A stretch of DNA of 64,000 nt, taken from the NCBI GenBank assembly GCA_041737965.1, contig JBGSQT010000001.1, positions 33,848 through 97,847 of the forward strand, written 5' to 3'. The notes beneath the pieces were generated by a model. It was given only the letters and a program-made list of their open reading frames with translations. It had not been told where the DNA came from and did no database searches. Positions 25,388-64,000 of the stretch are shown here, piece after piece (position 1 is the stretch's first letter; each line of letters begins with the position of its first letter). The DNA comes from Spirochaetota bacterium. Its GTDB lineage: Bacteria; Spirochaetota; UBA4802; UBA5550. Both the position numbers and the translations under genes were made by a program.

Positions 25388-26773
25388 TTAGAATTCCAGC
25401 GTCTTCACGCAGCGCGGGTAGGGGATCACGTCGCGGATGTTCTGCATTCCAGTGACGAACTGGATGAGCCGTTCGAATCCGAGCCCGAATCCGGCATGGG
25501 GAACAGTCCCGAAACGCCGCAGGTCCATGTACCACCAGTAATCGTCGGGATTGAGCCCCATTTCGAGTATCCTGTTTTTAAGCGTACCGTAATCGGACTC
25601 CCTTTCACTGCCGCCGATAATCTCCCCGAGCCTCGGGACCAGTATATCCATGGCCCGGACAGTCCTGCCGTCTTCATTCAGCTTCATGTAAAAGGCCTTT
25701 ATCTCCTTCGGATAATCGATAATGATCACCGGCTTCATGTACACTTTTTCGGTCAGGTACCGCTCGTGTTCGCTCTGCAGGTCCTGCCCCCAGGCCACCG
25801 GATACTCGAATTTCTCGCCGGATTGGATGAGAATGTCCACCGCTTCGGTGTAGGTTATGCGGCGGAATTCGCTTTCGACGATGTTCCGCAGGTTTTCGAT
25901 GACGCCCTTGTTTATCCTGGAGTCGAAAAATTCCATGTCGTCGCGGCAATTGTCCAGTATGTGGGTGAATATGTATTTGAGGAACTCCTCGGCGACGTTC
26001 ATGTTTTGCGTTATATCGCAGAAGGCCATTTCCGGCTCCACCATCCAGAACTCGGCAAGGTGCCGGGAGGTGTTGGAATTTTCCGCCCTGAAGGTGGGGC
26101 CAAAGGTGTAGATGTTGGTGAGGGCGCAGGCGTAGGTTTCCCCTTCAAGCTGGCCGCTCACGGTAAGGGATGCTTTTTTGCCGAAAAAATCGCCGTCGTA
26201 ATCGACATTCCCCTCACGTTTCGGCGGGTCCTCGAGAGAGAGCGTGGTGACGGTAAACATGTCGCCGGCACCCTCGCAGTCGCTTCCGGTGATGATGGGA
26301 GTGTGCACCAGGACAAACCCCCTTTCATGGAAAAATCGATGGATCGCGAAGCTCATTTCGCTTCTGATCCTGGCCACGGCCCCGAAAGTGTTGGTCCTGG
26401 CACGCAGATGGGCGATTTCCCTGAGGAATTCAAATGAATGCCGCTTTTTCTGGAGCGGGTACTCGTCGGCCGGGGACTCTCCCAGAAGCTCGATGGATTC
26501 GGCTTTCAGCTCGACCTGCTGGCCTGTTCCGGGGGATTCGATGAGCCGCCCGGCGATCCTCACACTGCACCCGTTGGTGAGTTTTTGGCCGAGTTTTTTA
26601 AAATCCGGGAGGCCGCCGTCAATGACCGCCTGCAAATTCTTTATGGACGAACCGTCGTTGATCTCAAGAAAGGATATTTCCTTGGAGTCTCTCCTTGTGC
26701 GGACCCAGCCCTCGGCCGTGCACGCGGCTCCCGCGGATCCTGTCAGCAATTCTTTAATGCTCATTCTGTTCAT
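25388..26773 (-). CDS. asnS: Asparagine--tRNA ligase
   Basis: N-terminal OB anticodon-binding domain, [25 protein letters not shown] (motif 2) and GFGLGFERL (motif 3). 461 aa. Confidence 0.95.
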
Positions 26774-26837
26774 GGTCTCCTCGTCTTTCCGCGCTCACGC
26801 GGCAGGTTCATCATTGTTTGTGTGTCGACCTGGTCTG

Positions 26838-28073: not shown

Positions 28074-28150
28074 GGACGTGCCGCTCCTGATTTTTTTTCA
28101 CACACTTAATCAGCGGGCGGCGTAATGTCAAGAATAAAGACGGGGGGCGA

Positions 28151-31100
28151 TCAGGCCCCGTGGTATTCCTGAAGCGGCGTGACGCCGAGATCCTCCGATT
28201 TTTTCGCCTCCAGCCCCTTGAGCGCCGCCATGGCGCCGGCGACGGTGGTGATGTAGGGGATTTTGTACTTTATCGCCGCCTTGCGAATGTAGGAGTCGTC
28301 GTACTCGCTCAGCTTTCCGCTGGGCGTGTTGATGATCAGCTGAATCTCGTTGTTCTTTATCCTGTCCACGATGTGGGGCCGGCCCTGGTACACTTTCAGA
28401 ACCGGTTCCGATTGTACCGAGTGCTCGTTGAGAAAGCGGTGAATCCCCTCTGTCGCAAGGATTTTGAACCCGAGCCTGCCGAGTCCCCTGGCGACCTCCA
28501 GCGCGCCCTGCCGGTCGTTCTTGTTCACCGTGAGGAGCACGGTCCCGCTGAGGGGCAGATACTGTTTGGCCGCCTCCTGCGCCTTCAGATAGGCGATCCC
28601 GAAGGTCGGCGCCATTCCGAGCACCTCCCCGGTGGACCGCATCTCGGGTCCGAGCAGGGGGTCCACTTCCGGGAACATATTAAAGGGGAACACCGATTCC
28701 TTGACCCCGAAATGGCTGAGCGCTTTCCGTGACAGGCCGAGGTCCTTCAGCCTGCTCCCCAGCATTACACGGGTTGCCAGGTTCGCCATGGAAATGTTGC
28801 TCACCTTGGATACAAGCGGTACGGTCCTGGACGCCCTCGGGTTGGCCTCCAGGACGTAGACCATGTCGCCGGCGATGGCGTACTGGATGTTGATGAGGCC
28901 CACCACCTTGAGCTCGATGGCGATCCGCTTCGTGTAATCCTCGATTGTGGTGATGTGCTTCTGAGGGATGCTCACCGGCGGGAGCACGCAGGCCGAATCG
29001 CCGGAATGCACGCCGGCGAGCTCGATATGCTCCATCACCGCGGGGACGAACGCGTCGGTTCCGTCGCTGATGGCGTCGGCCTCCGCCTCGATGGCGTTGT
29101 CCAGGAATTTGTCGATCAGTATCGGCCTCTCCGGGCTCACGTCCACCGCGGCGTTGACGTACTGCTCCAGCATCTGCTCGTCGTGTATGATCTCCATCGC
29201 GCGGCCCCCCAGCACATAGGAGGGCCTCACGATGAGGGGGTATCCGATCCTCCCGGCGATACTCTTGGCCTCGTCAAGGGTGCTGGCCATTCCGGATACC
29301 GGCATCGGTATTCCCATCGCCTCCATTACATTCCTGAACCTGTCCCTGTCCTCGGCCAGGTCGATCGAATCCGGCGAAGTGCCGAGAATTTTCACGCCCG
29401 CCCTGAGGAGCTCGCCGGCGATGTTGAGCGGCGTCTGGCCGCCGAACTGCACGATCATCCCCTCCGGTTTTTCCTTTTCATAGATGTTCAGCACGTCCTC
29501 CACGGTCAGCGGCTCGAAATAGAGCTTGTCCGATGTGTCGTAATCTGTCGAGACCGTCTCCGGGTTGCAGTTCACCATTATCGATTCGTATCCCCCGTCG
29601 CGGAGCGCGAAGGCGGCGTGGACGCAGCAGTAATCGAACTCGATCCCCTGGCCGATCCTGTTGGGGCCGCCGCCGAGGACCATGATCTTTTTCTTATCGG
29701 ACACCGGGACCGTGTCATCGGCGTTATAGGTGGAATAGTAGTAGGCTGCGTTTTCCACGCCGCTTACCGGTACCGAGTCCCATCGGCCGGAAAGGCCCGC
29801 CTTCAGGCGCTGTCCGCGTATCTTCATTTCATCGGAGCCGATCAGGCGGGCGATATACCTGTCCGCGAAACCGTCTTTTTTCAGCCTGAGGAGCAGCTCA
29901 CGCGGGACGGTGCCGTTCCGGTGCGCCAACAGCTCCTCTTCAAGGTCCACAAGCTCCTTCATCTGGGTGATGAACCACTTTTTGATAAAGGTTTTTTCAT
30001 GAAGCTGGTCCACCGTCGCCCCCTTGCGGAGCGCCTCGTACATCTGGTACTGGCGCATGCTCGAGGGGACCGTCATGATGCGCATGATTTCGTCGAGGTC
30101 CATGGACCTGATCTTTTCCACACCGCCAAGGCCGTAGCTTCCGGTTTCCATGGAGCGGATCGCCTTCTGAAACGCCTCTTTATAGGTCTTGCCGATGCTC
30201 ATCGCCTCGCCCACGGCCTTCATCTGGGTTCCCAGCTCGTCATTGACCCCGGGGAATTTTTCGAAACCCCACCGGGGGAATTTCACCACAACATAATCGC
30301 CCGAAGGGGTGTACTTGTCCAGAGTGCCGTCCCGCCAGTAGGGTATTTCATCCAGGGTGAGCCCGCAGGCCAGGAGCGCCGAGACATAGGCGATGGGGAA
30401 ACCGGTCGCCTTTGACGCCAGGGCCGAGGAGCGGGACGTCCTCGGGTTTATTTCGATCACCACGACGCGGCCCGTATTCGGGTCGTGGGCGAACTGAATG
30501 TTGGTGCCGCCGATTACGCGTATCGCCTCGACGATGTCGTAGGAGTAGCGCTGGAGTTTTTCCTGCAGGGCCTTTTCAATGGTGAGCATCGGCGCGACGC
30601 AGAATGAGTCGCCGGTATGTATCCCCATCGCGTCGACGTTTTCGATGAAACAGACGGTGATCATGCAGTTTTTTGAGTCCCGGACCACTTCGAGCTCGAG
30701 TTCCTCCCACCCCATCACCGATTCCTCAACGAGAATCTGTCCCACAAGGCTTTCCGAAAGACCTCTGGACGCCACCGTCTGGAGCTCCTCCTTGTTGTAC
30801 ACGTGGCCGCCGCCGGTGCCTCCCATGGTATACGCGGGACGAATCACCACCGGGTACCCCATATCCTGCGCGATCGCTTCCGCCTCCTCGAGACTGTATG
30901 CGGGACTGCTTTTTGGCATTTCGATACCGAGGCCGTTCATGGTCTCCTTGAAGGCGATGCGGTCCTCCCCTTTTTCTATCGCCTCTGCCTCAACGCCGAT
31001 GATCTTCACCCCGTATTTCGCCAGAATCCCCTTTTTGTGCAGTTCCGACGACAGGTTCAGGCCGGTCTGGCCCCCCAGGTTCGGAAGAAGCGCGTCGGGC

Positions 31101-31345
31101 CGTTCCTTTTCGATTATTTTTGCCAGAGACTCGACATTCAGCGGTTCGATATAGGTTTTATCCGCCATTCCCGGGTCGGTCATGATGGTTGCGGGGTTGG
31201 AATTCACAAGAATAATGGTGTATCCCAGTTTTTTCAATGCTTTGCACGCCTGGGTTCCGGAATAATCGAATTCGCAGGCCTGGCCTATGATGATGGGACC
31301 GGAACCTATAATCAGTACTGTGTTGATGTCGTCTCTTTTTGGCAT
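28151..31345 (-). CDS. carB: Carbamoyl-phosphate synthase large subunit
   Basis: Duplicated ATP-grasp halves, N-terminus MPKR.DI..VLIIGSGPIIIGQACEFDYSG, and a C-terminal MGS-like domain. 1064 aa. Confidence 0.97.
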   Translation of the reverse strand: MPKRDDINTVLIIGSGPIIIGQACEFDYSGTQACKALKKLGYTIILVNSNPATIMTDPGMADKTYIEPLNVESLAKIIEKERPDALLPNLGGQTGLNLSSELHKKGILAKYGVKIIGVEAEAIEKGEDRIAFKETMNGLGIEMPKSSPAYSLEEAEAIAQDMGYPVVIRPAYTMGGTGGGHVYNKEELQTVASRGLSESLVGQILVEESVMGWEELELEVVRDSKNCMITVCFIENVDAMGIHTGDSFCVAPMLTIEKALQEKLQRYSYDIVEAIRVIGGTNIQFAHDPNTGRVVVIEINPRTSRSSALASKATGFPIAYVSALLACGLTLDEIPYWRDGTLDKYTPSGDYVVVKFPRWGFEKFPGVNDELGTQMKAVGEAMSIGKTYKEAFQKAIRSMETGSYGLGGVEKIRSMDLDEIMRIMTVPSSMRQYQMYEALRKGATVDQLHEKTFIKKWFITQMKELVDLEEELLAHRNGTVPRELLLRLKKDGFADRYIARLIGSDEMKIRGQRLKAGLSGRWDSVPVSGVENAAYYYSTYNADDTVPVSDKKKIMVLGGGPNRIGQGIEFDYCCVHAAFALRDGGYESIMVNCNPETVSTDYDTSDKLYFEPLTVEDVLNIYEKEKPEGMIVQFGGQTPLNIAGELLRAGVKILGTSPDSIDLAEDRDRFRNVMEAMGIPMPVSGMASTLDEAKSIAGRIGYPLIVRPSYVLGGRAMEIIHDEQMLEQYVNAAVDVSPERPILIDKFLDNAIEAEADAISDGTDAFVPAVMEHIELAGVHSGDSACVLPPVSIPQKHITTIEDYTKRIAIELKVVGLINIQYAIAGDMVYVLEANPRASRTVPLVSKVSNISMANLATRVMLGSRLKDLGLSRKALSHFGVKESVFPFNMFPEVDPLLGPEMRSTGEVLGMAPTFGIAYLKAQEAAKQYLPLSGTVLLTVNKNDRQGALEVARGLGRLGFKILATEGIHRFLNEHSVQSEPVLKVYQGRPHIVDRIKNNEIQLIINTPSGKLSEYDDSYIRKAAIKYKIPYITTVAGAMAALKGLEAKKSEDLGVTPLQEYHGA

Positions 31346-31572
31346 TGCCTGCTCCTGTGTCTGAGTATTATGGGATTAAGTATCGCTAAATATTTATATG
31401 TCAATACTAAAAATATTTTATGTCTCCGGCAATCCGAACAGCATGAATCTCGCCGGCATCCTGGAAATGGGCATGCAAAAAATTCCGTCGGCCTGTCATT
31501 TATGACTTTACTTTTATTCCAGAATGAAGCATCCATTTTGACCTCTGAATATACGCGACGAGAGGTGATCAG

Positions 31573-33153
31573 ATGAAACGCAACGCGGCGCTTTTCTGCG
31601 GGTTGATCTCCCTGTCCGCGCTCTGCTGCATGAGCGCGGTTGGCGAGCGCACCGCTGGTACGGTTTCGATAAGGGGGCTTTCCCTCGATGAGGTCCGGGA
31701 AAAAACCGTCGAGGATTACCGCACCATACAGAGATTCCGGGAGGGGCTTGCCGGAATCAACCTTTTCATGAAAACGCGACCGGACATTTTCAAACGGCCC
31801 GAAAAGTTCAACCGGAGCACCTTCAACAGCGCCGAAAGGGACACGATACTCGGAGTCTGGCGTTCCATGATCGACTACTACCTTGCCCTGGATTCTCTGC
31901 GCCGCTTCCATTCCGGCTACTGGCTTATCGGCGACAGGGACCATCAGTACGGCTCCTTTGTCTGCTACCTCTCGTCCTTTATGGCCGAATACCGATATGC
32001 CCTGGATTTTCTCGCCATAACAGAGAGGGACGACGCTTTCGCGAAGATCCTGAACGAACCTCTTCCGGAAATCGGCCTTGAGGGGAACAGCTACGCCGAG
32101 TTTAAATTCCGGTACCTCAACGTCGCCGCCGCCACCGAGTTCGCGTCGCTCCACTTTCTGTACACCGGGTACCGCGGCGAAGGGTATCCGAAAGTTGCGG
32201 GACCGGTAAACGGGGACATATCGCGGATCTGGGGTTTCGGCAAAGGGAAGGGTATCGCCATGACCGCGGCCAACGCACTGGACCTTGTGAAAAAATCCGC
32301 CTCCATCGTGTTTTTTCCGGTTCAGAGCGGCGTTGCGGAGTGGATGGGTGACACCAAGGTGTGGCGCCTTTCGAAGTCTCTCATCACCCCCCAGCAGCTG
32401 GACAGTCTTCTGCCTAAGCTGGAGCCGGGGGACGTGCTTCTGGAGAGGAGGGAGTGGTATCTCTCCAACATAGGGCTTCCGGGATTCTGGCCCCACGCGG
32501 CGCTCTTCATCGGCACTGCCGAGGAGAGGGAACGTTTTTTCGACGATCCGGACGTGGCGCAATGGGTCAGGAAGAGGGGGACCGCAAGCGGCAAGCTTGA
32601 AGATCTGCTCAAGAAAAGCTTTCCCGGCGCGTACCGGGACTTCGAGGCCCCCGACAAGGCCGGTCATCACTGCCGCGTCATAGAGGCGATGAGCGAGGGC
32701 GTACTGTTTACGTCTCTGGAGCACTCCGGCGATTGCGACGCCCTGGCGGTGCTCCGTCCGAGGCTCACAAAGCGGGAAAGGGCGGAGGCGATACTTACCG
32801 CTTTTTCATATCAGGGCAGGCCCTATGATTTCGATTTTGATTTCATGACCGACAGGACCATCGTGTGCACCGAACTGGTCTACAAATCCTACCAGCCGCG
32901 TCCCGGTTTCCGCGGCATCCAGTTCATGCTGACCGAGATGATGGGCCGCATGGTCCTGCCTGCAAACGAGATAGCCCGTCAGTACGACCTCGTGGCCGGC
33001 ACCGGTCTTCAGCAGTTCGATTTTATCGAGTTCTATGACGGCGTCGAAAAGGACGGGAAGGCGTATGTTTCAAACGTCGACGGTTTCAGGAAGAGCTGGA
33101 AGCGGCCCCGATGGCACAGTTACTCGCAGAAGACGGCTCTGGGGTTGGAATGA
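31573..33153 (+). CDS. Secreted permuted-papain (YiiX/C92, NlpC/P60 superfamily)-like protein
   Basis: Signal peptide. Blocks GDVLLER...FWPHAALFIG...VIEAMSEGV and YDFDFDF...IVCTELVYKSY resemble the C92 permuted catalytic arrangement. Confidence 0.5.
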   Translation: MKRNAALFCGLISLSALCCMSAVGERTAGTVSIRGLSLDEVREKTVEDYRTIQRFREGLAGINLFMKTRPDIFKRPEKFNRSTFNSAERDTILGVWRSMIDYYLALDSLRRFHSGYWLIGDRDHQYGSFVCYLSSFMAEYRYALDFLAITERDDAFAKILNEPLPEIGLEGNSYAEFKFRYLNVAAATEFASLHFLYTGYRGEGYPKVAGPVNGDISRIWGFGKGKGIAMTAANALDLVKKSASIVFFPVQSGVAEWMGDTKVWRLSKSLITPQQLDSLLPKLEPGDVLLERREWYLSNIGLPGFWPHAALFIGTAEERERFFDDPDVAQWVRKRGTASGKLEDLLKKSFPGAYRDFEAPDKAGHHCRVIEAMSEGVLFTSLEHSGDCDALAVLRPRLTKRERAEAILTAFSYQGRPYDFDFDFMTDRTIVCTELVYKSYQPRPGFRGIQFMLTEMMGRMVLPANEIARQYDLVAGTGLQQFDFIEFYDGVEKDGKAYVSNVDGFRKSWKRPRWHSYSQKTALGLE

Positions 33154-34016
33154 TGTCGCGGCGGAACAGAGGATCCTCCCGCCGTGGGTCGAACGTGAGC
33201 GATCACGGATTCAGGCTGAAAGTATACATCGCCATCTTTGCCGCGGTGATGGCGATCGGGACGGTCGGATTCATGGCGACCGAGGGGAGGACGCTTTTCG
33301 ATTCGGCCTACTATACGGTCGTGACCGTGGCCACGGTCGGGTACGGCGACATCCATCCGGAAACACCGGCGGGGAAGGCGATCGCCATTATGATTATTTT
33401 ATTCGGCACCGGCACTTTTCTGGGGGTCGTCGCCACCGCCACCGAGATGATGCTCTCAAGGCGCGAGGAGCGGTCCAGGCATGACAAGCTCAATATTCTG
33501 GCGGGGCTTTTTTTCAGCGAGATCGGCTTGAGTGTCCTGAAAACAGCGTCGATCAAGGACAGCGCCATCGGTTCCATCCGGAAGACCCTTGCGTCCGCGG
33601 GAAAATGGACCGACGCCGACGTGTCCGCAATCAGGACATACTTCTCGGGACACGAGTCCGACCTCGCGCCGCTTCCCGCCGATTTCGAACTGCTCCGGGG
33701 AATCCTGAAGGAAAACCAGTACCTTATGATTCAGCTCCTGGAAAATCCGGTGCTGGTGGAGCACGAACATTTCACCGACATACTTCGCGCCGCCTTTCAT
33801 TTTAACGAGGAGCTGAGAAGCAGGAACGATTTCCGTGAACTCCCTCCAAGCGATTTGGAGCACCTGAAAGGGGACCTGAAGCGGCTGTACGATTTCCTGA
33901 TCCCGCAGTGGGTCGACTACATGGTGTTTTTAAAGGAAAATTATCCGTACCTTTTCTCCCTCGCGGTGAGGACCAACCCATTCTGTGACCGTGAGGACGC
34001 CCGCGTGATCGGGTGA
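33150..34016 (+). CDS. Two-TM potassium channel with an uncharacterised helical C-terminal domain
   Basis: Selectivity filter TVATVGYGD between two TM helices. ATG 33150 overlaps the upstream stop (ATGA). Confidence 0.78.
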   Translation: MMSRRNRGSSRRGSNVSDHGFRLKVYIAIFAAVMAIGTVGFMATEGRTLFDSAYYTVVTVATVGYGDIHPETPAGKAIAIMIILFGTGTFLGVVATATEMMLSRREERSRHDKLNILAGLFFSEIGLSVLKTASIKDSAIGSIRKTLASAGKWTDADVSAIRTYFSGHESDLAPLPADFELLRGILKENQYLMIQLLENPVLVEHEHFTDILRAAFHFNEELRSRNDFRELPPSDLEHLKGDLKRLYDFLIPQWVDYMVFLKENYPYLFSLAVRTNPFCDREDARVIG

Positions 34017-34029
34017 CGCGCTCCCCGGA

Positions 34030-34410
34030 TCAGAACAGCCCCAGCTGGCACGAGTTGATTTTTACGCCCATCACATCGCAGGCGGCGCCGATTTCCTCAC
34101 GCGCGGCGCCTGCAAGCTCGGCTATGTCCCAAGCCTGGCGGCAGGTGATGCTCCCGTTTCCGGAAAGCGCGTCTATTGCCGCCCTTACCGGGCCACGTAC
34201 CGCGCCGTGCGGCGGATCCTTTCGGCGCCGGAGCAGCCCCAGCCTGCACTGGCGCACTTTTATCGAAAGTGAATCCGCTTTTTCGCCGAGCATCACCGGG
34301 TCGGCGCCCATTCTGTCAGCGCACCGGAAAAGCTCATCGCAGGTGACCGAGCCGGCGCTATGGTCGATTCCGCAGTGTCTATAAAATGCGTCGTCTTTGA
34401 TTTCTGCCAT
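34030..34410 (-). CDS. Small protein made of two tandem Cys-containing repeats (126 aa)
   Basis: Internal duplication: SVTCDELFRCADRMGADP..IKVRQCRLGLL versus SITCRQAWDIAELAGAAR..VKINSCQLGLF. I recognise no family. Confidence 0.5.
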   Translation of the reverse strand: MAEIKDDAFYRHCGIDHSAGSVTCDELFRCADRMGADPVMLGEKADSLSIKVRQCRLGLLRRRKDPPHGAVRGPVRAAIDALSGNGSITCRQAWDIAELAGAAREEIGAACDVMGVKINSCQLGLF

Positions 34411-34428
34411 AACCCGCGTTTTCCAGTG

Positions 34429-35922
34429 TCAGTAGACGGCGATCCAGTGCTCGAGGACGCGGTCCATGGCATCCTTCATGCGTTCGTTCCACCAGTAGGC
34501 GCGGTTGCGGACGTCCCTTTCGCGCCTGTCCGGGTCCCGCTCGAAAGCGCGCCTTTTTTCCCGGTCGGTGATAAAAAAGGAGAAGAGTAGCCTTCGGTGG
34601 GAACTGGTGAAAATGTAGCCCGATAGGCCGATGGCGTAATTAATGGTGCCGGTTTTCCCCCACACATGAAAGGCGGTATTCGGCCCGTAGAGGCGCGAGA
34701 GCATCGACCATTCCCATCCGGACGCGGGGAGCATGGAGATGAAGGTGCGTTCGCCGTAGGTCCTTGAATCCGCGTAGACCAGCGCCCCCAGCATCTGTGA
34801 GGGGGTCACGGAGTTTCCGCTCGTCAGTCCCGACCCGTTTTCAAGGCGGAAACCGGACCAGTCGATTCCGCGGACCCGGGATCTGACATACGCGGCAACC
34901 GCTTCGCCTGATTCCGCGAGCGGGAGGCTCCTTCCGGCGAGCTTGCGTGCCGAGGCCAGGAGCATCAGCTCCGCCATGATGTTGTTGCTGTAGGTAAGGG
35001 TGATTTCCGCGATCTGCGAGAGAGGCCGTCCCCTGTGCGCCGCCACCTCCCGAGTTCCCGATGGAACGGCGCCCGCTTTCGGCTCCGGAAGGATGACTCC
35101 GTGCATGGCGCAGGCCTTTCTGAACATGAAGGCGGTGTAGAGACCGGGGTTGTGCACCGGAAGGCGCTCGCTTCCGCCCCGTTTTTCCTCGGGTGAAAGA
35201 AGCCATCGCTCCCTGATTCCGCTCCTCACAAGCTTGAAGGGGATGCCTTTTCCCGGGGATTCACCCGCGATTCCGGCGCCGTAGAACGGCATGTCCGGAA
35301 TCAGCGTGATTTTCATGGAGTCCCGGTCTCTGTCGTCCCTTTCCCAGCGGGCGATGAAGGTGTTGTATTCCAGGGAGAGGGCGCTGATTCCCGGATTGTA
35401 CGATACGTCCTCGTCCATGGACGGGTCGATCATGTCGGCGCGGTACAGGGCGGTTTCGTCGTAATAGAAATTTCCGGCCACCTCCCGGAGGCCGGCCGCC
35501 TTCAGTCTTGCCGCCAGGAGCATGAGGTCGGCCATTGCCAGCAGAGGGTCGCCGGTACCGCGAAGATACAAATCTCCCGCCAGGCGGCCCTGTACGATGT
35601 CGCCCGCGGCGTGTATAAAAGTATCAAACCTGAAATCCGGTCCCAGTATGTCCAGGGCGGCCAGGATGGTGAGAATTTTTGTGACCGACGCAGGGATGAA
35701 GGGCACGTCCCTGTTGTGACTCTGGATCACGGTCCCGGTTTCCGGGTCGTAGAGGATGAATCCGCTCATGTCCGCGGGGAGATCATTTGTCCTGATAAGC
35801 TCGCCGCTGTCGCCGCTCTGGTCGGGGCCGAGTGACACGGTCACCGGCTCCGGTTTTCCGGCACAGCCGGATACAGAGATCAGAAAAAGTGTAATTGTTA
35901 CCGCCGCCAGTACCGGGCGCAT
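34429..35922 (-). CDS. dacB: D-alanyl-D-alanine carboxypeptidase/endopeptidase (PBP4, peptidase S13)
   Basis: Lipoprotein-like signal (ISVSGC), SxxK (ASVTK), SxN (YSNN) and KTG (GKTGT). Confidence 0.85.
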   Translation of the reverse strand: MRPVLAAVTITLFLISVSGCAGKPEPVTVSLGPDQSGDSGELIRTNDLPADMSGFILYDPETGTVIQSHNRDVPFIPASVTKILTILAALDILGPDFRFDTFIHAAGDIVQGRLAGDLYLRGTGDPLLAMADLMLLAARLKAAGLREVAGNFYYDETALYRADMIDPSMDEDVSYNPGISALSLEYNTFIARWERDDRDRDSMKITLIPDMPFYGAGIAGESPGKGIPFKLVRSGIRERWLLSPEEKRGGSERLPVHNPGLYTAFMFRKACAMHGVILPEPKAGAVPSGTREVAAHRGRPLSQIAEITLTYSNNIMAELMLLASARKLAGRSLPLAESGEAVAAYVRSRVRGIDWSGFRLENGSGLTSGNSVTPSQMLGALVYADSRTYGERTFISMLPASGWEWSMLSRLYGPNTAFHVWGKTGTINYAIGLSGYIFTSSHRRLLFSFFITDREKRRAFERDPDRRERDVRNRAYWWNERMKDAMDRVLEHWIAVY

Positions 35923-36084
35923 CGGAAAAACCTCCGTACAGTGTCATGCAGTTTCATTAAGTGTCATGGCCAAATGTGAAACCCAGTGTTATCCCGGGTC
36001 CGGCTCAATGCAACAATTAATTGCACATGGGGGAGATAATACCGAGGAATAATGGTTTGACACCTGCGGACGACCCCGCCATGG

Positions 36085-50228: not shown

Positions 50229-52022
50229 GTGTTGCAGAGAAAAAAAATAAACAGCCCCCATTTCCGGGAATGCGTCATTTTTACGGTGCTGGTCTTTATC
50301 TCCCTGTTGTTTCGTAATGACGCGCTCAGAGGGGATGAACTGCCATCAGGAAATATTTTCTCGCCGGATATCGGCACGACCAGATTTGAAGCGGTGGAAA
50401 TGGGAGACGTCAGAGATTTCGCGATCCACGGCGATTTTGCATATGTTCTGGTGCGGCAGTTCAACATGATCACCGACTCGATATTCAAGATCGGCAGGAA
50501 TGACGGGCGGATCGTCAGAATATGGGGGATCGGAAACTTCAGTTCGTCAGCCATCGAGTCGGATGGAAAGCATCTGTACGTTCTCGGCGAGAAGTGCGGG
50601 CATTTTATCAGGGTATTTTCGATGAACGGCGACTGGGTACGTACCCTGAAACTGAAGGATGGGCCGTCAGGATCCCTGTTCGGACTCGGAATTTCGGAAG
50701 ATAAGCTGTATTACACGCTTTTTGACGGTGTGAAATCCGAACTCTGCGTGTATGATAAAAAATCGGAAACCTCGAAATCGATTTACACATTCAACAATAA
50801 GATCGAATCCCTCGCCATGGTGTCCGGCCGTGTGGTGATGTACCAGAATTATTTCGACGCCTATTCATCCCACTGGATGGGGGTGGTGGATTTTAATCCC
50901 CTCAGGTACCGAGTGGTCCGCTTTTTAAACGACAGCGCCATCGGTTTGTCCGCGGGACCTTCGGGAACGGCATATTATCTTTCAGGAGGCAGCAGGCAGT
51001 TCAGGATAACGCCGTTTGTCCTGCTGGACGATGACCGGACCGTGGCAGCAAATCCCCGGAAAAAGAAGGTGACCGTCACGTTCCATCTGTCAGGGACCGC
51101 AAACCCCTCGAAGATGCAACTGTGGATACCATGTCCCTGGGAAACGAAATTCCAGAGGGTAAGCAACCTCGTATTGGCTCCGGCGCCGAAGGAGTACGCG
51201 ACGGACAGGTTCGGCAATAAATGGGCGGGATATCAGGATGATCAGTATCGGGGAAAAAGCACGGTTGAAATGAAATTCGATCTTCAAACCGCAGAAGCGG
51301 CCTATACTGTTGACAAATTTGCCCCATATTCCAATAAGATGATCCCCGAGACTATCCTCGAAGAATATGCCGGATCTACAGATCTCAATGAAAAGGACTC
51401 GCCTGAACTGCTTGCGGCCCTTACGGTAATGCCCAGGGAATATCTTCACATTTCAAGGCTTCTTGGGCTGAGAAATTACCTCCAGGAGAAACTGCGGGCG
51501 GGCGCCGATGACTCCGGATGCCTAACCGCGGAGTGCGTTCTCAAAAAAGGCAAATGCGGCGGCCAGGGCTTTTCTCTTGTCATGTCGGCGTTGTCCAGGT
51601 TGTACGGCATCCCCGTGAGATCAACCGGAGGGTATTTGATCGCACCGGAAACCGGGGATGATACGGCTGAAGCGATGTATTGGAACCAGTGGTACATGCC
51701 CGGTTACGGATGGATCGACGTGAATTCGGGAGTTGTCGGGCCGAAGGATTCCCCGTCTCAAAAAGGGGATTTTTGCTACATCGGCAACGGGCGCTGTATG
51801 ATGTTTGCGGGCGATTTAGGGACTCCGGATTATAAAGAGATATTCGCGGCCGGCGAATGGCGTTACGTCCTGAAGAGCGAACCGGCCGAAAAAGGGAAGA
51901 ACGCGCGGGTAGAAGTTTCAACTATTACTGTGAAAGGCGAGAATATCGCGGCAGAAAAAAAGAAGAGACCGGTGCGAAGGCCGGTTCGAAGGCCGGTGCG
52001 CCGCAGATCGAGAAAAAAATAA
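50229..52022 (+). CDS. Membrane-anchored protein with a beta-propeller-like N-region and a transglutaminase-like core domain
   Basis: N-terminal anchor VIFTVLVFISLLF. The block GKCGGQGFSLVMSALSRLYGIPVRSTGGY....WNQWYMPGYGWIDVN resembles the transglutaminase core. The tail is basic (RPVRRPVRRPVRRRSRKK). Confidence 0.6.
   Translation: MLQRKKINSPHFRECVIFTVLVFISLLFRNDALRGDELPSGNIFSPDIGTTRFEAVEMGDVRDFAIHGDFAYVLVRQFNMITDSIFKIGRNDGRIVRIWGIGNFSSSAIESDGKHLYVLGEKCGHFIRVFSMNGDWVRTLKLKDGPSGSLFGLGISEDKLYYTLFDGVKSELCVYDKKSETSKSIYTFNNKIESLAMVSGRVVMYQNYFDAYSSHWMGVVDFNPLRYRVVRFLNDSAIGLSAGPSGTAYYLSGGSRQFRITPFVLLDDDRTVAANPRKKKVTVTFHLSGTANPSKMQLWIPCPWETKFQRVSNLVLAPAPKEYATDRFGNKWAGYQDDQYRGKSTVEMKFDLQTAEAAYTVDKFAPYSNKMIPETILEEYAGSTDLNEKDSPELLAALTVMPREYLHISRLLGLRNYLQEKLRAGADDSGCLTAECVLKKGKCGGQGFSLVMSALSRLYGIPVRSTGGYLIAPETGDDTAEAMYWNQWYMPGYGWIDVNSGVVGPKDSPSQKGDFCYIGNGRCMMFAGDLGTPDYKEIFAAGEWRYVLKSEPAEKGKNARVEVSTITVKGENIAAEKKKRPVRRPVRRPVRRRSRKK
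51969..52004 (+). repeat. Three tandem 12-bp units encoding (RPVR)x3
   Basis: ccggtgcgaagg / ccggttcgaagg / ccggtgcgccgc. Confidence 0.8.
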
Positions 52023-52134
52023 TTGTGTATCAATCGGACCTTTGGAACCGGCTGGGACCCCCCCCAAATGTCCGATGACGGCAGTTATAAACATGCCGGC
52101 GAAAGGCATCACATCAAGATGAAGGAAGAACGAC

Positions 52135-53199
52135 ATGAGTGACCGAGTAAAAGGGGACCGAAATGTCCCCCGGCTCACGGAAACCGTTACCGGATCCGGC
52201 TGAGCGGCCAAGATGGGTCCGTGTGACCTGGCAGACGCCATAAAAGGCATAACACCGCCCGATGATCCTGCGGTAATCGTGGGCCTCGGATCAAACGACG
52301 ACGCGGGGGTCATCAGGTTGGGCGACGATATCGCCCTTATACAGACCGTGGACTTCATCACTCCGCTGGTGGATGATCCTTATGCCTTCGGTATGATCGC
52401 CGCATGCAACAGCCTTTCGGACGTTTACGCCATGGGAGGCGTCCCCTATACCGCGCTGAATATCGTATGCTTCCCCACTGAAATTTTTTCACTGGATGTT
52501 CTTCGCGAGGTGCTCGCTGGAGGGCTCGAGATATGCACAAGGGCGGGATGCCGGCTCCTTGGAGGTCACAGCGTGACGGACAAGGAGATGAAGTTCGGCC
52601 TCTCCGTCACCGGGCTGGTTCATCCCGATAAAGTTTTACTGAACAGGGGAATCAGGGCGGGTGATGTGCTGGTTCTGACCAAACCGCTCGGTACCGGCGT
52701 CATCGCGACTGCGGTAAAGGCCGGGCTTTCCGGGAGGGAAACGGTGGAGCCGTTCATCCGTTCAATGACGTCGCTCAACGATACGGCGGCTCGGATAACG
52801 GCAGATTTCCCCGTTCACGCATGCACTGACGTCACCGGATTCGGACTGGCGGGGCATATAAGTGAAATGCTGGGGAATGAGAATATAATTGTAGAAATCG
52901 ATTCTGCGGCGATTCCGCTGCTGCCCGGGGCCGCGGAATGCGCAAGGAACGGCCTGATTCCCGGTGGCAGGTACAAAAACGAGGATTTCACCAGGGGATT
53001 GTTCTCGTCAGCGGACGGGATACCCCGCGAAATGACGGATCTCGTCTTTGATCCCCAGACTTCAGGCGGGCTCCTTATCTCCCTGCCGGAGAAGGATGGC
53101 GTGCAATTGGTCGCCCGCCTTCGCGATGCGGGAATACGCGACGCCGCGATTGTCGCCGCGGTTGCCGCGGGAGATATCCCCATCATCAAACTCAAATGA
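52135..53199 (+). CDS. selD: Selenide, water dikinase (selenophosphate synthetase) with an in-frame TGA read as selenocysteine at 52201-52203
   Basis: Reading from ATG 52135 gives MSDRVKGDRNVPRLTETVTGSG-TGA-AAKMGP.... This aligns with the E. coli SelD segment IRLTQYSHGAGCGCK, with the TGA on catalytic Cys17 and Lys on Lys20. The remainder (DDAGV, DFITP.VDDPY.FG, GGHS, TDVTGFGL.GH) is canonical SelD. Confidence 0.85.
52214..52230 (+). promoter_or_regulatory. SECIS-like hairpin downstream of the selD TGA
   Basis: Stem tgggtc/gacctg (4 Watson-Crick plus 2 G-U pairs) with loop cgtgt, starting 10-11 nt after the TGA. Confidence 0.45.
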
Positions 53200-57857: not shown

Positions 57858-59204
57858 TCAGCGTTTCATCAAAAGATGCGCCGCGGTGTTGATCGGGTCC
57901 CATACCGGGGAAAAAGGGGGCGCGTATCCGAGATCCAGATATGCCAGTTGCTCCACCGTCATCCCGGTGGTTATGGCCGCGGCGGCGATGTTGGAACGGA
58001 GGGCGGCGCCGTCGGTGCCGGCGCACTCACAGCCGATAACGGTGCCGGTCGTATCGTTAATCACCAGGTTTACCAGTATGGGGCGAGCGCCCGGGTAATA
58101 ACCGGCCCTTGATCTCCCCTCAACGGCCGCGGCCCGCGCGGGTATCCCCGCAGCCAGTGCATCGGACTCGTTAAGGCCGGTTTTCCCCACCTCGAGGTCG
58201 AAAACCTTTACCTGCTGGGACCCCACGATGCCGGGGAACCGCTCACCTCTGATTCCCGCCGCCTGCAGTCCCGCCACGCGGCCCTGCTTGTTTGCCGTGG
58301 TCCCCAGGGGCATGTACACGTCCTTTCCCGTCACCATGTGCCTCACCGTGGCGCAGTCGCCCGCGGCATACACGTCCGGCGCGGTTGTCATGGAGCGATC
58401 GTCCACGATGATCGCCCCTTTCTCGTGAAGCGCAAGGGCGCCGGGCGTGAGAAATCCGGTGTTGGGTTTGATCCCCACTGAGAGTATGGCGAAATCCGCG
58501 GAATATGGCCCGCCGTCCCCGTGCACCGTGACCGATGACCCGCGGTCCTCAATTTCGGCGATGGATATGCCGGTATGGAAGGACACGCCGTTTTCCCGGA
58601 GAGTTTCCGCAACCATCTTCCTGATCCCGGGCGACATGGCCATGGCTACGGACTCAAGCCTTTCCAGCAGGGTGATTTCTATCCCGCGTTTCCTCAGCGA
58701 CTCGGCCATTTCGAGGCCGATAAACCCCCCTCCGATAATGACGCCGGAGTTGGGCTTTTCACTGTCGATGAACTTCCGTATTGCGATTCCCTGGGCGAGG
58801 CTTCTCAGCGGAAACACACGGGGGGAGGTTACCCCCTTGATGGGAGGGATGAAAGGCGATGCGCCGGTGGCGATTACAAGTGTGCCGTAAGAACGCTCAG
58901 ACGTGCCTTTACCCTGCCTGAACGAAACGACCTTTTTCTCGAAATCGACTCCTACTGCTTCAGACTCGAGAAATATGGATATGTTTTTTCTTTTCGAAAA
59001 CTCCTCACGATCGATGGCAAGGAGGTCCTTCGATGAGCCCACGTCGCCGGATATGAAGTACGGCATGCCGCATGCCGCGTATGAGACATCGACGCTCTTC
59101 TCAAATACCGCTATTGACATTGAGTTGTCGATCCTGCGGGCCTGCGACGCCGCGGTCATGCCGCCTGCGTCGCCGCCTATGACAAGAAGATCGTAGTTGT
59201 TCAT
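57858..59204 (-). CDS. FAD-dependent pyridine nucleotide-disulfide oxidoreductase of the NADH oxidase / CoA-disulfide reductase type
   Basis: FAD motif VIGGDAGG, single redox Cys in SYAACGMPYFI, NAD motif GGGFIGLE, and a C-terminal dimerisation domain. Confidence 0.85.
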   Translation of the reverse strand: MNNYDLLVIGGDAGGMTAASQARRIDNSMSIAVFEKSVDVSYAACGMPYFISGDVGSSKDLLAIDREEFSKRKNISIFLESEAVGVDFEKKVVSFRQGKGTSERSYGTLVIATGASPFIPPIKGVTSPRVFPLRSLAQGIAIRKFIDSEKPNSGVIIGGGFIGLEMAESLRKRGIEITLLERLESVAMAMSPGIRKMVAETLRENGVSFHTGISIAEIEDRGSSVTVHGDGGPYSADFAILSVGIKPNTGFLTPGALALHEKGAIIVDDRSMTTAPDVYAAGDCATVRHMVTGKDVYMPLGTTANKQGRVAGLQAAGIRGERFPGIVGSQQVKVFDLEVGKTGLNESDALAAGIPARAAAVEGRSRAGYYPGARPILVNLVINDTTGTVIGCECAGTDGAALRSNIAAAAITTGMTVEQLAYLDLGYAPPFSPVWDPINTAAHLLMKR

Positions 59205-59281
59205 GAGGCTTCCGCGCGCATTTTATAATACCGCATATTCAGTGATGGCCTCCCGTTTCGGCCGCCCTTTCCGGCATTATA

Positions 59282-59854
59282 TCAATACGCCTCGCAGTTT
59301 ATCTCGAAATATGCCTTTGGATGATCGCAGCAGGGGCATTTTTCGGGAGCGTTTTTGCCTGACACTATATATCCGCAGTTACGGCACTTCCACTGTACGC
59401 TCGATTCCTTCTTAAAGGTGGTCCCGTCAACTATGGTGCTGCGAAGCGCCCTGTACCTCTCTTCGTGGTGCTTTTCCACTTCCGCGATTTTTCTCCAGAT
59501 AAAGGCCGCGTCCTTGAAGCCCTCCTGCTCGGCCGTTGCGGCAAAGGCCGGATACAGCTCGGTATGCTCCTCTTTCTCTCCATTGGCTGCGGCTTCAAGG
59601 TTCTCCAGCGTGGTGCCGATGCATCCGGCGGGATACATCGCCGTAATCTCCACCGCACCGCCTTCAAGAAACTTGAAAAACTTTTTCGCGTGTTCTTTTT
59701 CGTTTTCCGCTGTTTCAAGAAATATGGCGGCTATCTGCTCATACCCCTCTTTTTTCGCCTGAGAAGCGAAATAGGTGTAACGATTCCTTGCCTGTGATTC
59801 TCCGGCAAAAGAAGCGAGCAGATTCTTTTCCGTTTTTGTTCCTTTAATACTCAT
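59282..59854 (-). CDS. rbr: Rubrerythrin
   Basis: Diiron four-helix-bundle ExxH motifs (ENEKEHA, EKHHEE) plus a C-terminal rubredoxin-like CRNCG....CPCC. Confidence 0.93.
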
Positions 59855-59942
59855 TTTTGTCCTCTTTGAAGTAATTTTTTAAGCCTGCATTTCGGTACAT
59901 CATCCTGCAATCGCGCAGACGTGTATGACGACTCGCATCAGA

Positions 59943-60935
59943 TTAATCCACTATTTTTCCTTTGAATACCCTGTACACATATACCGTGTATCCCAGAACA
60001 ATCGGGATTCCGATACAGGTGATGATGAGCATCACCTTGAGGGTCAGTTCGCTCGAAGACGCGGAGAATATGGTTATATCGAAGCCCTCGCTCGCCCTGA
60101 CGAGGTTGGGGTAGAGCTGAAGCCCTGCGATTCCCCAGAAAGAGACGATTGCTCCGGCGGTGGTCATATACAGCACACCGTCCCGCTCACCGTGAAGCAG
60201 AAGCCTGAAGCTGGTTATGGAAGCCGCGGCCACGGCGAACAGGGCCCATGACCAGGGGCTTGTCATGCTCTCCGGGAGGACCAGCGCCGCAGCGGCGACA
60301 GAGGCGACGGCGATGATGACGTGGAACATCCACACCGTTGCGGCGACGCTTTTCGCGCGGGAGTTCGTCTGCCCCGACGTTTTCAGGATCGCAAAAGAGC
60401 AGCCGTGGAGAATAATGAGCGTAAGCCCGAGCAGTCCTATCAGAAGCGGAAAAGGCCTGAGCAGGGTGAAGAATGACCCGATATAGTTCATCTGATAATC
60501 AAGCGGCACCCCAAACACGATGTTCCCCAGGGTCACACTGAGGAGAAAAGCCACAAGCGCGCTGCAGACTGAGTACGTCCACATCCACAGCTTCCTCCTC
60601 TTCTCGTCGAGAAACCAGAACTCTATGGACACTGCCCTGAAAATAAGGGCGAAAAGGAGGAGCATCAGGGCAAGATAGAACCCGCTGAACACCGTGGCGT
60701 AGGCCTGGGGAAACGCGGCGAACAGCGCGGCACCGCCGGTGATGAGCCAGACTTCGTTGCCGTCCCAGAGCGGACCGATCGCGGTGAAAAGTTTTTTCGT
60801 GTCGCCTTCACTTTCGCAGAGAAGGGGGAGCGATACGCCTATTCCGAGATCGAACCCGTCAAGTATGGTATATCCGGTAAGGAGAAAACCGATAATGAGA
60901 AACCATGTGATCTGTAAAACCTGATGTGTATCCAT
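59943..60935 (-). CDS. cydB: Cytochrome bd-type quinol oxidase subunit II
   Basis: N-terminus W.....L.GY.ILDGFDLG. About 8 TM helices. It lies directly downstream of cydA. Confidence 0.9.
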   Translation of the reverse strand: MDTHQVLQITWFLIIGFLLTGYTILDGFDLGIGVSLPLLCESEGDTKKLFTAIGPLWDGNEVWLITGGAALFAAFPQAYATVFSGFYLALMLLLFALIFRAVSIEFWFLDEKRRKLWMWTYSVCSALVAFLLSVTLGNIVFGVPLDYQMNYIGSFFTLLRPFPLLIGLLGLTLIILHGCSFAILKTSGQTNSRAKSVAATVWMFHVIIAVASVAAAALVLPESMTSPWSWALFAVAAASITSFRLLLHGERDGVLYMTTAGAIVSFWGIAGLQLYPNLVRASEGFDITIFSASSSELTLKVMLIITCIGIPIVLGYTVYVYRVFKGKIVD

Positions 60936-60955
60936 GAGTACCTCGCCTTGTGTGA

Positions 60956-62278
60956 TCAGTAACCAGCCGCTACGTCATCCATTCCCTTGCCGATAATTTT
61001 AAACAAGAGCTTAAGGAAAAGGAACCCGAGGATGAGATAAATGACGGAAAACATTATAAGGGAGAACAGAATATGGGCCGCGGGGACGTTGATCGATACC
61101 GCCTCCGATGTTTTTAAAATCCCATATACCGCCCAGGGCTGTCTTCCGATTTCCGCCGATATCCAGCCCACTTCGTTGGCAACCAGGGGGAGCGGCGATG
61201 CGAGCACCAGGGTCCACAAAAGCCATTTCTGCCGGTGCAATTTTTTTAGCACCATGAAAATAACGACCAGCATGCTCAGAAAGGCGAAAAACGAGCCGAG
61301 ACCTATCATCAGATGGTAGCTCATGTATACCGGTAAAAGCGGGGGCAGAACATCGTCTGAAAAACCGTCAAGGCCCCGCACTTCCGCGTCCGGATCGAAA
61401 TGAATCAAGAGGCTCAATAGTTTCGGCACCGCGATTTCAAAATGGGTCCGTTTCTCTGTCGCGTCGGGAATCCCGATGATGGACATGGGCGCTCCCTTCT
61501 GGGTTTTCCAGAGCGCTTCGAAGGAGGCCATTCTCTCGGGATTGGTCCTGGCAACCTGAACCGAGTGGGCGTGCCCAGTGCCGAACTGCAGGAGTGAGGC
61601 GAAGATGAACAGCGTCAGGGCGGTCCCAAGCAGTTTTTTTGCGTACACGGGGCTTTTCTCCTTCAACAGCAGCCAGGCGGCGATGCCGGCGACAAAAAGC
61701 GACCCGGTGATCCAGCCGCCCACTATCACATGGAAAAACCTCTGAAGCGTGGACGGGTTGAATACAGCTGCGCTGAAATCGGTAAGTACCGCCCTTCCGT
61801 GCTGGATGACGTAGCCTGCCGGCGTATGCATCCATGAATTGGCTATGATGATCCAGAGCCCCGACAGGTGAGAGGCGAAGCATACGAGAAACGCGGAAAG
61901 GAGATACACCCGCGGCGATACTTTATTCCTCCCCCAAATCAGCACGCCGATAAAGACGGATTCCAGAAAAAACGCGAAAATCCCCTCAGCCGCCAGGGGG
62001 GCCCCGAAAATATCCCCCACCATTCTCGAGTAGTTGGCCCAGTTGGTGCCGAAGGCGAATTCGAGAACGATGCCGGTTGCCACCCCGAGAGAGAAAACCA
62101 GCGCCAGTATTTTGATTAAAAACGAGGAGATTTTCTTATAGGCCTCCTCCCTGGTGAGATAAAATTTTGTCTCGATTATGACTATCAAGAGCGTCAATCC
62201 CAGGGTTATGGGAGGAAAAATAAAATGGAATCCTGCGTTTATGCCGAATTGGATCCTTGAAAGCAGTACCGCATCCAT
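60956..62278 (-). CDS. cydA: Cytochrome bd-type quinol oxidase subunit I (short Q-loop form)
   Basis: LSRIQFG....HFIFPP N-terminus, GWI.AE.GRQPW block. 440 aa. Confidence 0.93.
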   Translation of the reverse strand: MDAVLLSRIQFGINAGFHFIFPPITLGLTLLIVIIETKFYLTREEAYKKISSFLIKILALVFSLGVATGIVLEFAFGTNWANYSRMVGDIFGAPLAAEGIFAFFLESVFIGVLIWGRNKVSPRVYLLSAFLVCFASHLSGLWIIIANSWMHTPAGYVIQHGRAVLTDFSAAVFNPSTLQRFFHVIVGGWITGSLFVAGIAAWLLLKEKSPVYAKKLLGTALTLFIFASLLQFGTGHAHSVQVARTNPERMASFEALWKTQKGAPMSIIGIPDATEKRTHFEIAVPKLLSLLIHFDPDAEVRGLDGFSDDVLPPLLPVYMSYHLMIGLGSFFAFLSMLVVIFMVLKKLHRQKWLLWTLVLASPLPLVANEVGWISAEIGRQPWAVYGILKTSEAVSINVPAAHILFSLIMFSVIYLILGFLFLKLLFKIIGKGMDDVAAGY

Positions 62279-62312
62279 GTGTGTAGTCCTTTATAACAGT
62301 GTCCGCAGGATG

Positions 62313-62477
62313 TTATCCTTCGTATGGCTCAAACTGGTCTTTGCCCACTCCGCAGGTCGGGCAGACCCAGTCATCGGGAAGATCTTCAAATGCGGTGCCC
62401 GGTTTCGTTCCGGAATCTGGATCTCCTTCGGCGGGATCGTAAATATACCCGCATACACTGCACTGGTATTTCTTCAT
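62313..62477 (-). CDS. Rubredoxin (54 aa; absent from the ORF track because it is shorter than 60 aa)
   Basis: Manual translation gives [54 protein letters not shown]. It has the CxxCG and CPxCG iron ligands, and GGAGG lies 6 nt upstream of the ATG. Confidence 0.9.
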
Positions 62478-62569
62478 TGTGGCCTCCATGTTTTATTCGT
62501 TGGGTTTTTTAACTGCGCTGAGAATTGTGTAACAATAACTTATCAAACTGAAACAATTGTAATGGTTAC

Positions 62570-62597
62570 ATTTTAATCGCAAATATATTTTTTTCAA
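62570..62597 (-). promoter_or_regulatory. Candidate sigma-70 promoter for rubredoxin-cydAB
   Basis: On the minus strand: TTGAAA, a 16-nt spacer, then TAAAAT. The inverted repeat TGTAAccaTTACA (62558-62570) follows immediately. Confidence 0.4.
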
Positions 62598-62606
62598 GTA
62601 AAAAAT

Positions 62607-63029
62607 TCATCCATCGCATTTTTTGCACAGCCCCTTGAAGTACACATGGCTTTCAACGATGGAATATTCGTCCTTCCGGGAGGCCGCAAATTCCGTCATG
62701 CAGGAATTCATCGCGTCATTGAACATGATGTCCCTGAGAGAGCCGCATTTCAGGCACTTGAAATGACCGTGGACACGCGTGTCCTGATCGAAACGGACTT
62801 CGTTGTCTTCGATGGTGATCGACCGGATCAGCCCCTTTCCGGTAAAAGTTTTCAGAGTGTTGTATATGGTCGTCTTCGACAGGGTTGGTATGAGTTTGAT
62901 AATGTCCGTGTAAATGGTGTCCGCGGTTGGATGGGATTTATTGTTCATGAGGTACTCGTATATTTTAATCCTGTGGTATGACGGGACTATTCCGTTCCTC
63001 TCGAGTATTTGTTTTAAATCATCAAGCAT
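62607..63029 (-). CDS. Fur-family metalloregulator (PerR-like by context)
   Basis: Winged-helix N-domain, HGHF.C..CG and C..C structural-zinc pairs. It is embedded among oxidative-stress genes. Confidence 0.85.
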   Translation of the reverse strand: MLDDLKQILERNGIVPSYHRIKIYEYLMNNKSHPTADTIYTDIIKLIPTLSKTTIYNTLKTFTGKGLIRSITIEDNEVRFDQDTRVHGHFKCLKCGSLRDIMFNDAMNSCMTEFAASRKDEYSIVESHVYFKGLCKKCDG

Positions 63030-63061
63030 GGCATCACATCGCGTGTGACTACATAATATCT

Positions 63062-64000
63062 TTAAACCTTCAGAGTTTTCAGCTTTTTTTCCATCTCATC
63101 GAGAAACGTCGCGTTCGGTATATATTTACACTTGATCGATTCCAGCATGTCGAAACCGCATGATTTGAGTATTTCCTCGATCTGGCCGATGCTCTGCCCG
63201 CCCCAGCCGTATGACCCGAACGCGAGCCCTGTCCGTTTTTTAGGCGCCAGCCCCTTCATGTAGGTCAGAAAGGCCGAGACAGTTGGAAGCATATTGTTGT
63301 TCAGAGTCGGCGACCCGACGCAGATAAACCGGGCGTCGATGATTTCGGTCATGATGTCAGAGATGTGGTTTTCCTGAAGCCCCATCATCCTGGTGGCGGC
63401 TCCCATGTTCTCGAAGGCCCGCTGAATGGAGTAGGCCATGGTCCTGGTGGAATTCCACATAGTGTCGTACACAATGACCGCCTTCCGGCCGGTGATGTTG
63501 CCGCACCATTCCCCGTAGTTTTTCAGTATCTCCGGAATATGGCGCCTCCAGATTATGCCGTGGCTCGGCGCGATCGTCCCGATGTCGAGTCCGGCCGCGG
63601 CGTCGAGGGCTTTTCTCACCTGCTGACCGTAAGGAAGCACGATGTTTGCGTAATATTTTTTCGCTTCATGAAGGATGATGTCGAAGAAATATTCGTCGTC
63701 AAAACGTTCCGAGGTGGCGATGTGCTGGCCGAACGCGTCGTTTGAGAAGAGGACCTTTTCCTCGGCCAGGTAGGCCATCATGTTGTCCGGCCAGTGCACC
63801 ATCGGGGTGTGGACGAAATGGAACGTGTAGTTCCCTGTATTGAGGGTTTCGCCGGACTGGACGACCCTGAGGTTTTTGGTCAGGCCGAAGTGTTCCTGCA
63901 GGCCCTTGCTGCCGTTTGGCGACGTCACTACCACGGCTGCGGGGGCGATCTCCCTGATACGGGAGAGAGAGCCGGAATGGTCCATCTCGACGTGGTTTGA
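63062..64000 (-). CDS. Flavodiiron protein (FprA / rubredoxin:oxygen oxidoreductase type); the N-terminus runs off the window
   Basis: The frame is open to base 64000. The diiron motif HVEMDHSG is at the window edge, followed by an MBL-like domain and a C-terminal flavodoxin domain (AVIVYDTMWNST). Confidence 0.9.
   Translation of the reverse strand, partial: SNHVEMDHSGSLSRIREIAPAAVVVTSPNGSKGLQEHFGLTKNLRVVQSGETLNTGNYTFHFVHTPMVHWPDNMMAYLAEEKVLFSNDAFGQHIATSERFDDEYFFDIILHEAKKYYANIVLPYGQQVRKALDAAAGLDIGTIAPSHGIIWRRHIPEILKNYGEWCGNITGRKAVIVYDTMWNSTRTMAYSIQRAFENMGAATRMMGLQENHISDIMTEIIDARFICVGSPTLNNNMLPTVSAFLTYMKGLAPKKRTGLAFGSYGWGGQSIGQIEEILKSCGFDMLESIKCKYIPNATFLDEMEKKLKTLKV

Follow-up and report, generated by a model that had tools for sequence, protein, structure and literature searches.

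The window, a stretch of 64,000 nucleotides, carries on its forward strand a gene for selenide, water dikinase (selD) whose reading frame contains an internal TGA. On the basis of profile and structure matches, the full-length gene was assigned to 52135–53199 (+), encoding 354 residues with a predicted selenocysteine (Sec) at residue 23. Translation is predicted to start at an ATG (52135–52137, +). An in-frame stop five codons upstream closes the frame, leaving this ATG as the only start available for the extended gene. The sequence shows a Shine–Dalgarno-like purine run, gaaggaag (52121–52128, +), with a spacer of 6 nt to the ATG. The putative Sec codon, UGA (52201–52203, +), is followed by the codon for Lys26 (AAG, 52210–52212, +), then by that for an internal Met27 (52213–52215, +), and the genuine stop is a second TGA (53197–53199, +). 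The read-through product is MSDRVKGDRNVPRLTETVTGSG-U-AAKMGPCDL. The ORF list gave selD as 52213–53199 with 328 aa, and the database copy of this protein (P0001) also has 328 aa, both showing that Met27 had been mistaken for the start; inspection of the sequence ahead of ATG 52213 revealed no purine run comparable to gaaggaag. Ordinary gene callers thus lose the first 26 codons of selD. When the region was re-read, every coordinate of the preliminary description proved exact, with the frame open from ATG 52135 except for the TGA at 52201, and its claim that the ORF track cuts the catalytic loop off SelD was borne out by the codons missing from the Met27 start.

The read-through product matched TIGR00476, the SelD equivalog model, with 368 bits (cutoff 125), and its residues 13–320 covered positions 1–309 of the 311 in the profile. 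Since this match begins at profile position 1, the N-terminal extension belongs to the family model. NF002098 was matched with 302.3 (cutoff 299), and the PurM-like domains PF00586 and PF02769 (AIRS and AIRS_C) are recorded for P0001. The SelD proteins of Aquifex aeolicus (2yye) and E. coli (3u0o) matched at E values of 1.4e-67 and 2.7e-66, respectively, with alignments starting at residues 9–10 of the extended protein. In the alignment to 3u0o, PRLTETVTGSG-U-AAKMGP of the window lies opposite IRLTQYSHGAG-C17-GC-K20-ISP, and the same loop aligns with SSG-C-AAKVGP of the Aquifex chain 2yye, whose Cys is found in 'SSGCAAKVGPGDL'. In the Aquifex structures (2yye/2zod) the Cys at this loop position stands for Sec. 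The structure–sequence alignment placed the TGA on the Cys17/Sec column and Lys26 on Lys20 of E. coli SelD, completing a UxxK motif. This is where the preliminary description had put both residues, and the family alignment (TIGR00476, 3u0o and 2yye) agrees. In PMC13188914, UxxK is the motif given for selenoproteins of the selenophosphate synthetase family. On these alignments, the protein-level case for the predicted N-terminal extension is far beyond chance.

The closest comparable locus was found in a 'Spirochaetes bacterium' MAG (GCA_016929135.1; L001), whose SelD (P0003) is 65% identical to that of the window. The gene order is shared: a K+ channel, an OmpA-like protein, two unknowns, a transglutaminase-like protein and selD are followed in both by cNMP-GGDEF, DHH, metallophosphoesterase, hexapeptide transferase, rubrerythrin and cytochrome bd genes. 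As a separate observation, the transglutaminase-like protein of the window (50229–52022), encoded just upstream of selD, carries a short tandem repeat, KKKRPVRRPVRRPVRRRSRKK, at its C-terminal end; this repeat corresponds to direct DNA repeats at 51960–52020. The selD gene of L001 starts with ATG, 21 codons and TGA, making 22 codons with the ATG, as in the window, and its read-through product is MGQGTNMKPKPLRLSESVTGSG-U-AAKMGPCDL (that is, ...RLSESVTGSG-TGA-AAKMGPCDL). Two separate assemblies of this relative, L001 and L002, agree on the TGA and its position. Directly before the TGA, six of the eight identical residues are encoded by a different synonymous codon in L001 and the window (CGG/CGC, GAA/GAG, GTT/GTA, ACC/ACA, GGA/GGC and GGC/GGG), which indicates that the upstream peptide is under purifying selection.

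To place these genes in the wider family, one genome per GTDB species was scanned, and 80 further loci with 46–58% identity over the best-matching segment were obtained from Spirochaetes, Chloroflexi/Dehalococcoidia, Desulfobacterota, Firmicutes, Calditrichota and others. With L001 and L002 added, the set came to 82 loci, of which about 75 had TGA in the Sec column and five had TGT or TGC, with three left unplaced by the sequence pattern that was used to find the column. The TGA loci share the context RLT..V.G.G-U-A.K..P.DL, with flanks conserved on both sides. No selD locus above 58% identity was found in this genome scan, and a metagenome scan revealed no SelD relative above 55%. Among database proteins, none was more than 65% identical to the window SelD, and the nearest, at 65% identity and 331 aa, are cut at the same Met. 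Public records of TGA-type SelD are almost all truncated at the N-terminus, with about 319–331 aa, and for most of the 120 top database homologues the query was covered to 81–93%. As nearly all of these 120 are without the N-terminus, its loss is an artefact that annotation introduces systematically.

These comparisons bear on the possibility that functional SelD starts at Met 52213, with the upstream 78 nt forming an untranslated leader, or that the gene is a pseudogene in which a Cys codon has become a stop. Met 52213 is the start given by ORF callers and by the GenBank annotation for the gene and its relatives, and the failure to find Sec machinery in the 64-kb window, described below, would fit either version. 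Against a Met 52213 start, the upstream peptide is kept with synonymous substitutions at 65% identity, and also across phyla, and the purine-rich ribosome-binding site lies before 52135, with none before 52213. Furthermore, such a product would be without the glycine-rich loop that holds Cys17/Sec and Lys20. In E. coli SelD, Cys17 is the selenide-binding residue and a C17S mutant is catalytically inactive (PMC3956282), so the truncated protein would be expected to be catalytically dead. Independent nonsense mutations, as the pseudogene version would require, cannot account for a TGA that recurs in about 75 of the 82 loci. We therefore consider a start at Met 52213 or a pseudogene very improbable, although it is the strongest of the alternatives to a Sec-containing SelD.

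The prototype of the bacterial SECIS element is that of E. coli fdhF. Downstream of the UGA in the window we found a candidate for such an element (52214–52230, +), identified by its homology to the hairpins of TGA-type selD genes. Its sequence, tgggtc/cgtgt/gacctg, begins 10 nt after the TGA and forms six pairs, two of them G–U (52214–52219 with 52225–52230), around a 5-nt apical loop, CGUGU (52220–52224). Folding gave −5.4 kcal/mol and an ensemble probability of about 21%, with a competing fold present. The region 52195–52260 yielded a z-score of 0.21, which is no signal above shuffles, and 16% of synonymous-codon shuffles produced a stem at least as long as that of the window. Rfam returned no SECIS match at the gathering threshold across the whole window, nor at E values up to 10 within 52120–52320. 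On its own, the window hairpin is weak and statistically not significant, and in the absence of a single-sequence folding signal it was judged only by comparison with other selD genes. Another short hairpin, UGGC-AGAC-GCCA (52229–52240), was weighed as an alternative SECIS and set aside, as L001 does not conserve it.

The published bSECIS model, that of bSECISearch as summarised in PMC13188914, specifies a loop of 3–9 nt, a stem of 4–16 bp, a G within the first two loop positions, a UGA-to-loop distance of 16–37 nt and a heuristic stability limit of −7.5 kcal/mol or lower. Like the window element, the modelled SECIS is a stem-loop that follows the UGA immediately and lies within coding sequence. 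The window hairpin agrees with its geometry, having a loop of 5 nt, a stem of 6 bp, and G then U at loop positions 2–3. It differs from the model in that its UGA-to-loop distance of 16 nt is the shortest that the model allows and in that it is less stable, −5.4 kcal/mol being above the limit; the 45-nt region as a whole folds to −12.1 kcal/mol, in a different structure. Some genuine selenoprotein genes fail the bSECIS model (PMC13188914).

Comparison across selD genes gave a clearer result than folding of the single sequence. In nearly all TGA-type genes a hairpin begins 7–15 nt past the UGA; in the Cys-type genes it is missing or weaker. Among 74 TGA-type genes, the longest stem starting within 7–16 nt averaged 6.5 bp, compared with 4.2 bp in synonymous shuffles of these genes and 3–5 bp in the five Cys-type genes. 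In the 45 nt that follow the UGA of selD, the loci L003–L082 show two hairpin registers, 3 nt apart, across phyla; since loci were assigned to a register by the location of their best hairpin, the apparent conservation is somewhat inflated. Register 1, GGUC-CGGGN-GACC, arises from Gly-Pro-x-Asp-Leu codons, occurs in Spirochaetes, Chloroflexi and Firmicutes, and includes the window. Across its 32 genes, the Gly (GGT), Pro (CCG) and Asp (GAC) codons each keep the same third base in 31 cases, whereas the third bases of the adjoining Ala, Lys, Ile/Leu and Leu codons vary freely, with entropies of 0.95–1.85 bits, or 1.3–1.9 bits at the neighbouring degenerate sites. Pairing was found in 94.8% of cells, against 19–52% when the partners were slid by 1–3 columns, and the 32 genes showed conservation only, with no compensatory changes. 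Register 2, UCCAGG-GGA-CCUGGA, is found mainly in Desulfobacterota; here six of eight pairs showed compensatory changes, and the covariation score was reached by none of 500 shuffles. Both registers encode the same conserved G/x-P-G-D-L peptide through different codon choices, and in one locus (L078) the stem is retained with an altered peptide.

The hairpin stem is identical between L001 and the window, and on this comparison the window hairpin, weak as it is when folded alone, is best described as the local version of the hairpin that is conserved among TGA-type selD genes. In the window and L001/L002 only, the residue seven positions after Sec is Cys, where other Sec-type SelD proteins usually have Gly, Ala or Glu. 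The apical loop of this lineage correspondingly reads CGUGU/C as opposed to CGGGN elsewhere, with one C–G pair fewer: the Cys codon (UGU/UGC) removes the pair that closes the loop, making the window hairpin weaker than those of most relatives. As regards the SECIS hairpin put forward in the preliminary description, its position, its geometry and its homology to the conserved TGA-type hairpin held up, and its stability fell short of the cut-off.

We then considered how TGA is used in the window as a whole. It is the commonest stop, ending 26 of 46 well-supported ORFs, and it ends selD too. Since TGA is a normal stop, including selD's own, recoding at 52201 must be site-specific, which excludes a general reassignment. 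This weighs on a reading in which TGA is read generally as sense (code 4/25-like), or by near-cognate suppression, so that residue 23 would be Trp, Gly or Cys. It could draw on one homologue, the ENA record P0091, which shows W at the Sec column; this W presumably came from gene calling under a code with TGA as Trp. Reading through the TGA stops of the window added just short unsupported tails, homologues lacking the TGA have Cys in the column, forming the classic Cys/Sec pair, and only the TGA forms have the conserved hairpin after the codon. We rate general sense reading or suppression as slightly less probable still than the start at Met 52213. A sequencing or assembly error for TGT or TGC in an ordinary Cys-type gene would need a one-base difference only, in what appears to be a metagenome-type contig of 108 kb, yet the TGA recurs at this site in the independently assembled relative, in both L001 and L002, and the downstream hairpin is typical of TGA-type and not of Cys-type selD, making an error the least probable explanation of all.

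Genes of the Sec pathway were searched for within the window. No selA, selB or tRNA-Sec was found in the 64 kb. ARAGORN and Rfam detected only tRNA-Leu and tRNA-Gly (3305–3464) and no tRNA-Sec, and Pfam and NCBIfam scans of about 55 window ORFs yielded no selA, selB or selenouridine synthase gene (selU/ybbB). A Leptospira-like MAG (L015) served as positive control for tRNA detection: here a tRNA-SeC with anticodon TCA (4394–4484) lies about 400 nt downstream of a TGA-type selD; the selD of the window has no such neighbour. The 45 read-through candidates in the window that passed an overlap filter included no further convincing case of a gene interrupted by TGA, and the 17 that were translated showed neither a CxxU/UxxC-type motif nor family support. 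A CoA-disulfide-reductase-like gene (57858–59204) was evaluated as a selenium-related partner or selenoprotein and discarded, as its ORF is uninterrupted and it is absent from the syntenic relative. The Sec machinery would be expected elsewhere in the genome, given a Sec-type selD that is conserved and evidently selected.

Collectively, 52135–53199 very probably encodes a full-length SelD with selenocysteine in its catalytic N-terminal loop. The direct support consists of the reading frame, the homology, the TGA column, the conservation of the TGA and upstream peptide, and the conservation of the hairpin in TGA-type genes; the three alternatives jointly retain only a small share of the probability. 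The proposal in the preliminary description that selD is itself a selenoprotein gene is likewise supported, as far as sequence comparison can tell, by the family alignment, by relatives that carry the TGA and keep the upstream codons at the protein level, as it had suggested checking, and by the conserved hairpin. From these data we infer that Sec is inserted, that SelB binds the window hairpin and that selA, selB and selC lie outside the window in this genome. Translation would begin at ATG 52135, and a SelB–GTP–Sec-tRNA(Sec) complex anchored by the hairpin (52214–52230) would place Sec at UGA 52201 in place of termination, after which the ribosome would proceed to the ordinary stop at 53197. 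In the protein, Sec23 and Lys26 of the glycine-rich loop, corresponding to Cys17 and Lys20 of E. coli, would make selenophosphate from selenide and ATP. As SelD makes selenophosphate and would itself contain Sec, its own product would be needed for its own synthesis.

Such an enzyme has close counterparts. The Sec-type SelD proteins of Aquifex and Treponema denticola belong to the same family and share with the window the UxxK in the N-terminal Gly-rich loop, the position of the UGA and a hairpin right after it, and the Aquifex loop (SSG-C-AAKVGPGDL) is nearly identical to that of the window (GSG-U-AAKMGPCDL). The Cys-type SelD of E. coli (3u0o) has the same fold and family and shares RLT, the Gly-rich loop and Lys20, but encodes Cys17 as TGY, hence with no recoding and no SECIS, where the window has UGA; at position +2 it carries another Cys (CGCK), where the window has none (UAAK). 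Among prokaryotic selenoprotein families, only one is more widespread than SelD (PMC13188914), every bacterial selenoproteome analysed had either FdhA or SelD, and in the spirochaete T. denticola SelD is among six selenoproteins (PMC1794560). Both papers agree with the remark in the preliminary description that Sec-containing SelD is known in other bacteria. Because this form is already widespread and known in spirochaetes, the window case is an annotation correction and not a discovery; its selD is a further example of a well-known kind, with nothing biologically new. The correct annotation would be a SelD of 354 residues with Sec at 23, and not the 328-residue product. Furthermore, a Sec-type selD makes it likely that this uncultured, spirochaete-like bacterium decodes Sec, and genes that seem split or truncated at TGA elsewhere in its genome therefore deserve re-examination.

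We speculate, on what we consider a rather unlikely chance, that the replacement of Gly by Cys seven residues after Sec in this lineage may tune both the chemistry of the enzyme and its own Sec-dependent translation. If so, the lineage Cys would act as a resolving thiol, forming a selenenylsulfide with Sec23 and replacing the +2 Cys of the E. coli-type CGCK, and the same substitution would remodel the apical loop of the SECIS from GG to GU and weaken its stem.

Several other features of the window were recorded. An oxygen and oxidative-stress cluster (57858–63985) contains genes for a CoA-disulfide reductase/NADH oxidase-like protein, rubrerythrin, subunits II and I of cytochrome bd, a Fur-like ORF (62610–63029, −), named from its position and sequence alone, and a flavodiiron protein. 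L001 has the same cluster with desulfoferrodoxin and rubredoxin in addition and minus the reductase. The cluster suggests an oxygen-exposed anaerobe.

At 12183–13280 (−), a 365-aa ORF with a Pfam Hexokinase_2 match (E 3e-15) and no NCBIfam family adjoins the gene for PTS enzyme I (10298–12058). Directly downstream of a PBP4-type carboxypeptidase gene lies a 126-aa ORF (34033–34410, −) with two C-x-LGL-F/L motifs, for which no NCBIfam match was found. A complete asparagine-tRNA ligase (679 bits, NF003037) adjoins a 411-aa class-II synthetase paralogue at 25388–28073 (−), and the paralogue weakly resembles the archaeal-type asparagine synthetase A (134 bits, cutoff 309). The protein encoded at 19896–20768 (−) has a metallo-beta-lactamase fold and matched PF23023, 'Anti-Pycsar protein Apyc1', with 135.9 bits (cutoff 50), making it a chromosomal homologue of a phage enzyme that degrades cyclic nucleotides. 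Finally, the G+C content across carB and its neighbours (28000–36000) is 57–59%, compared with 46–53% in the remaining window.
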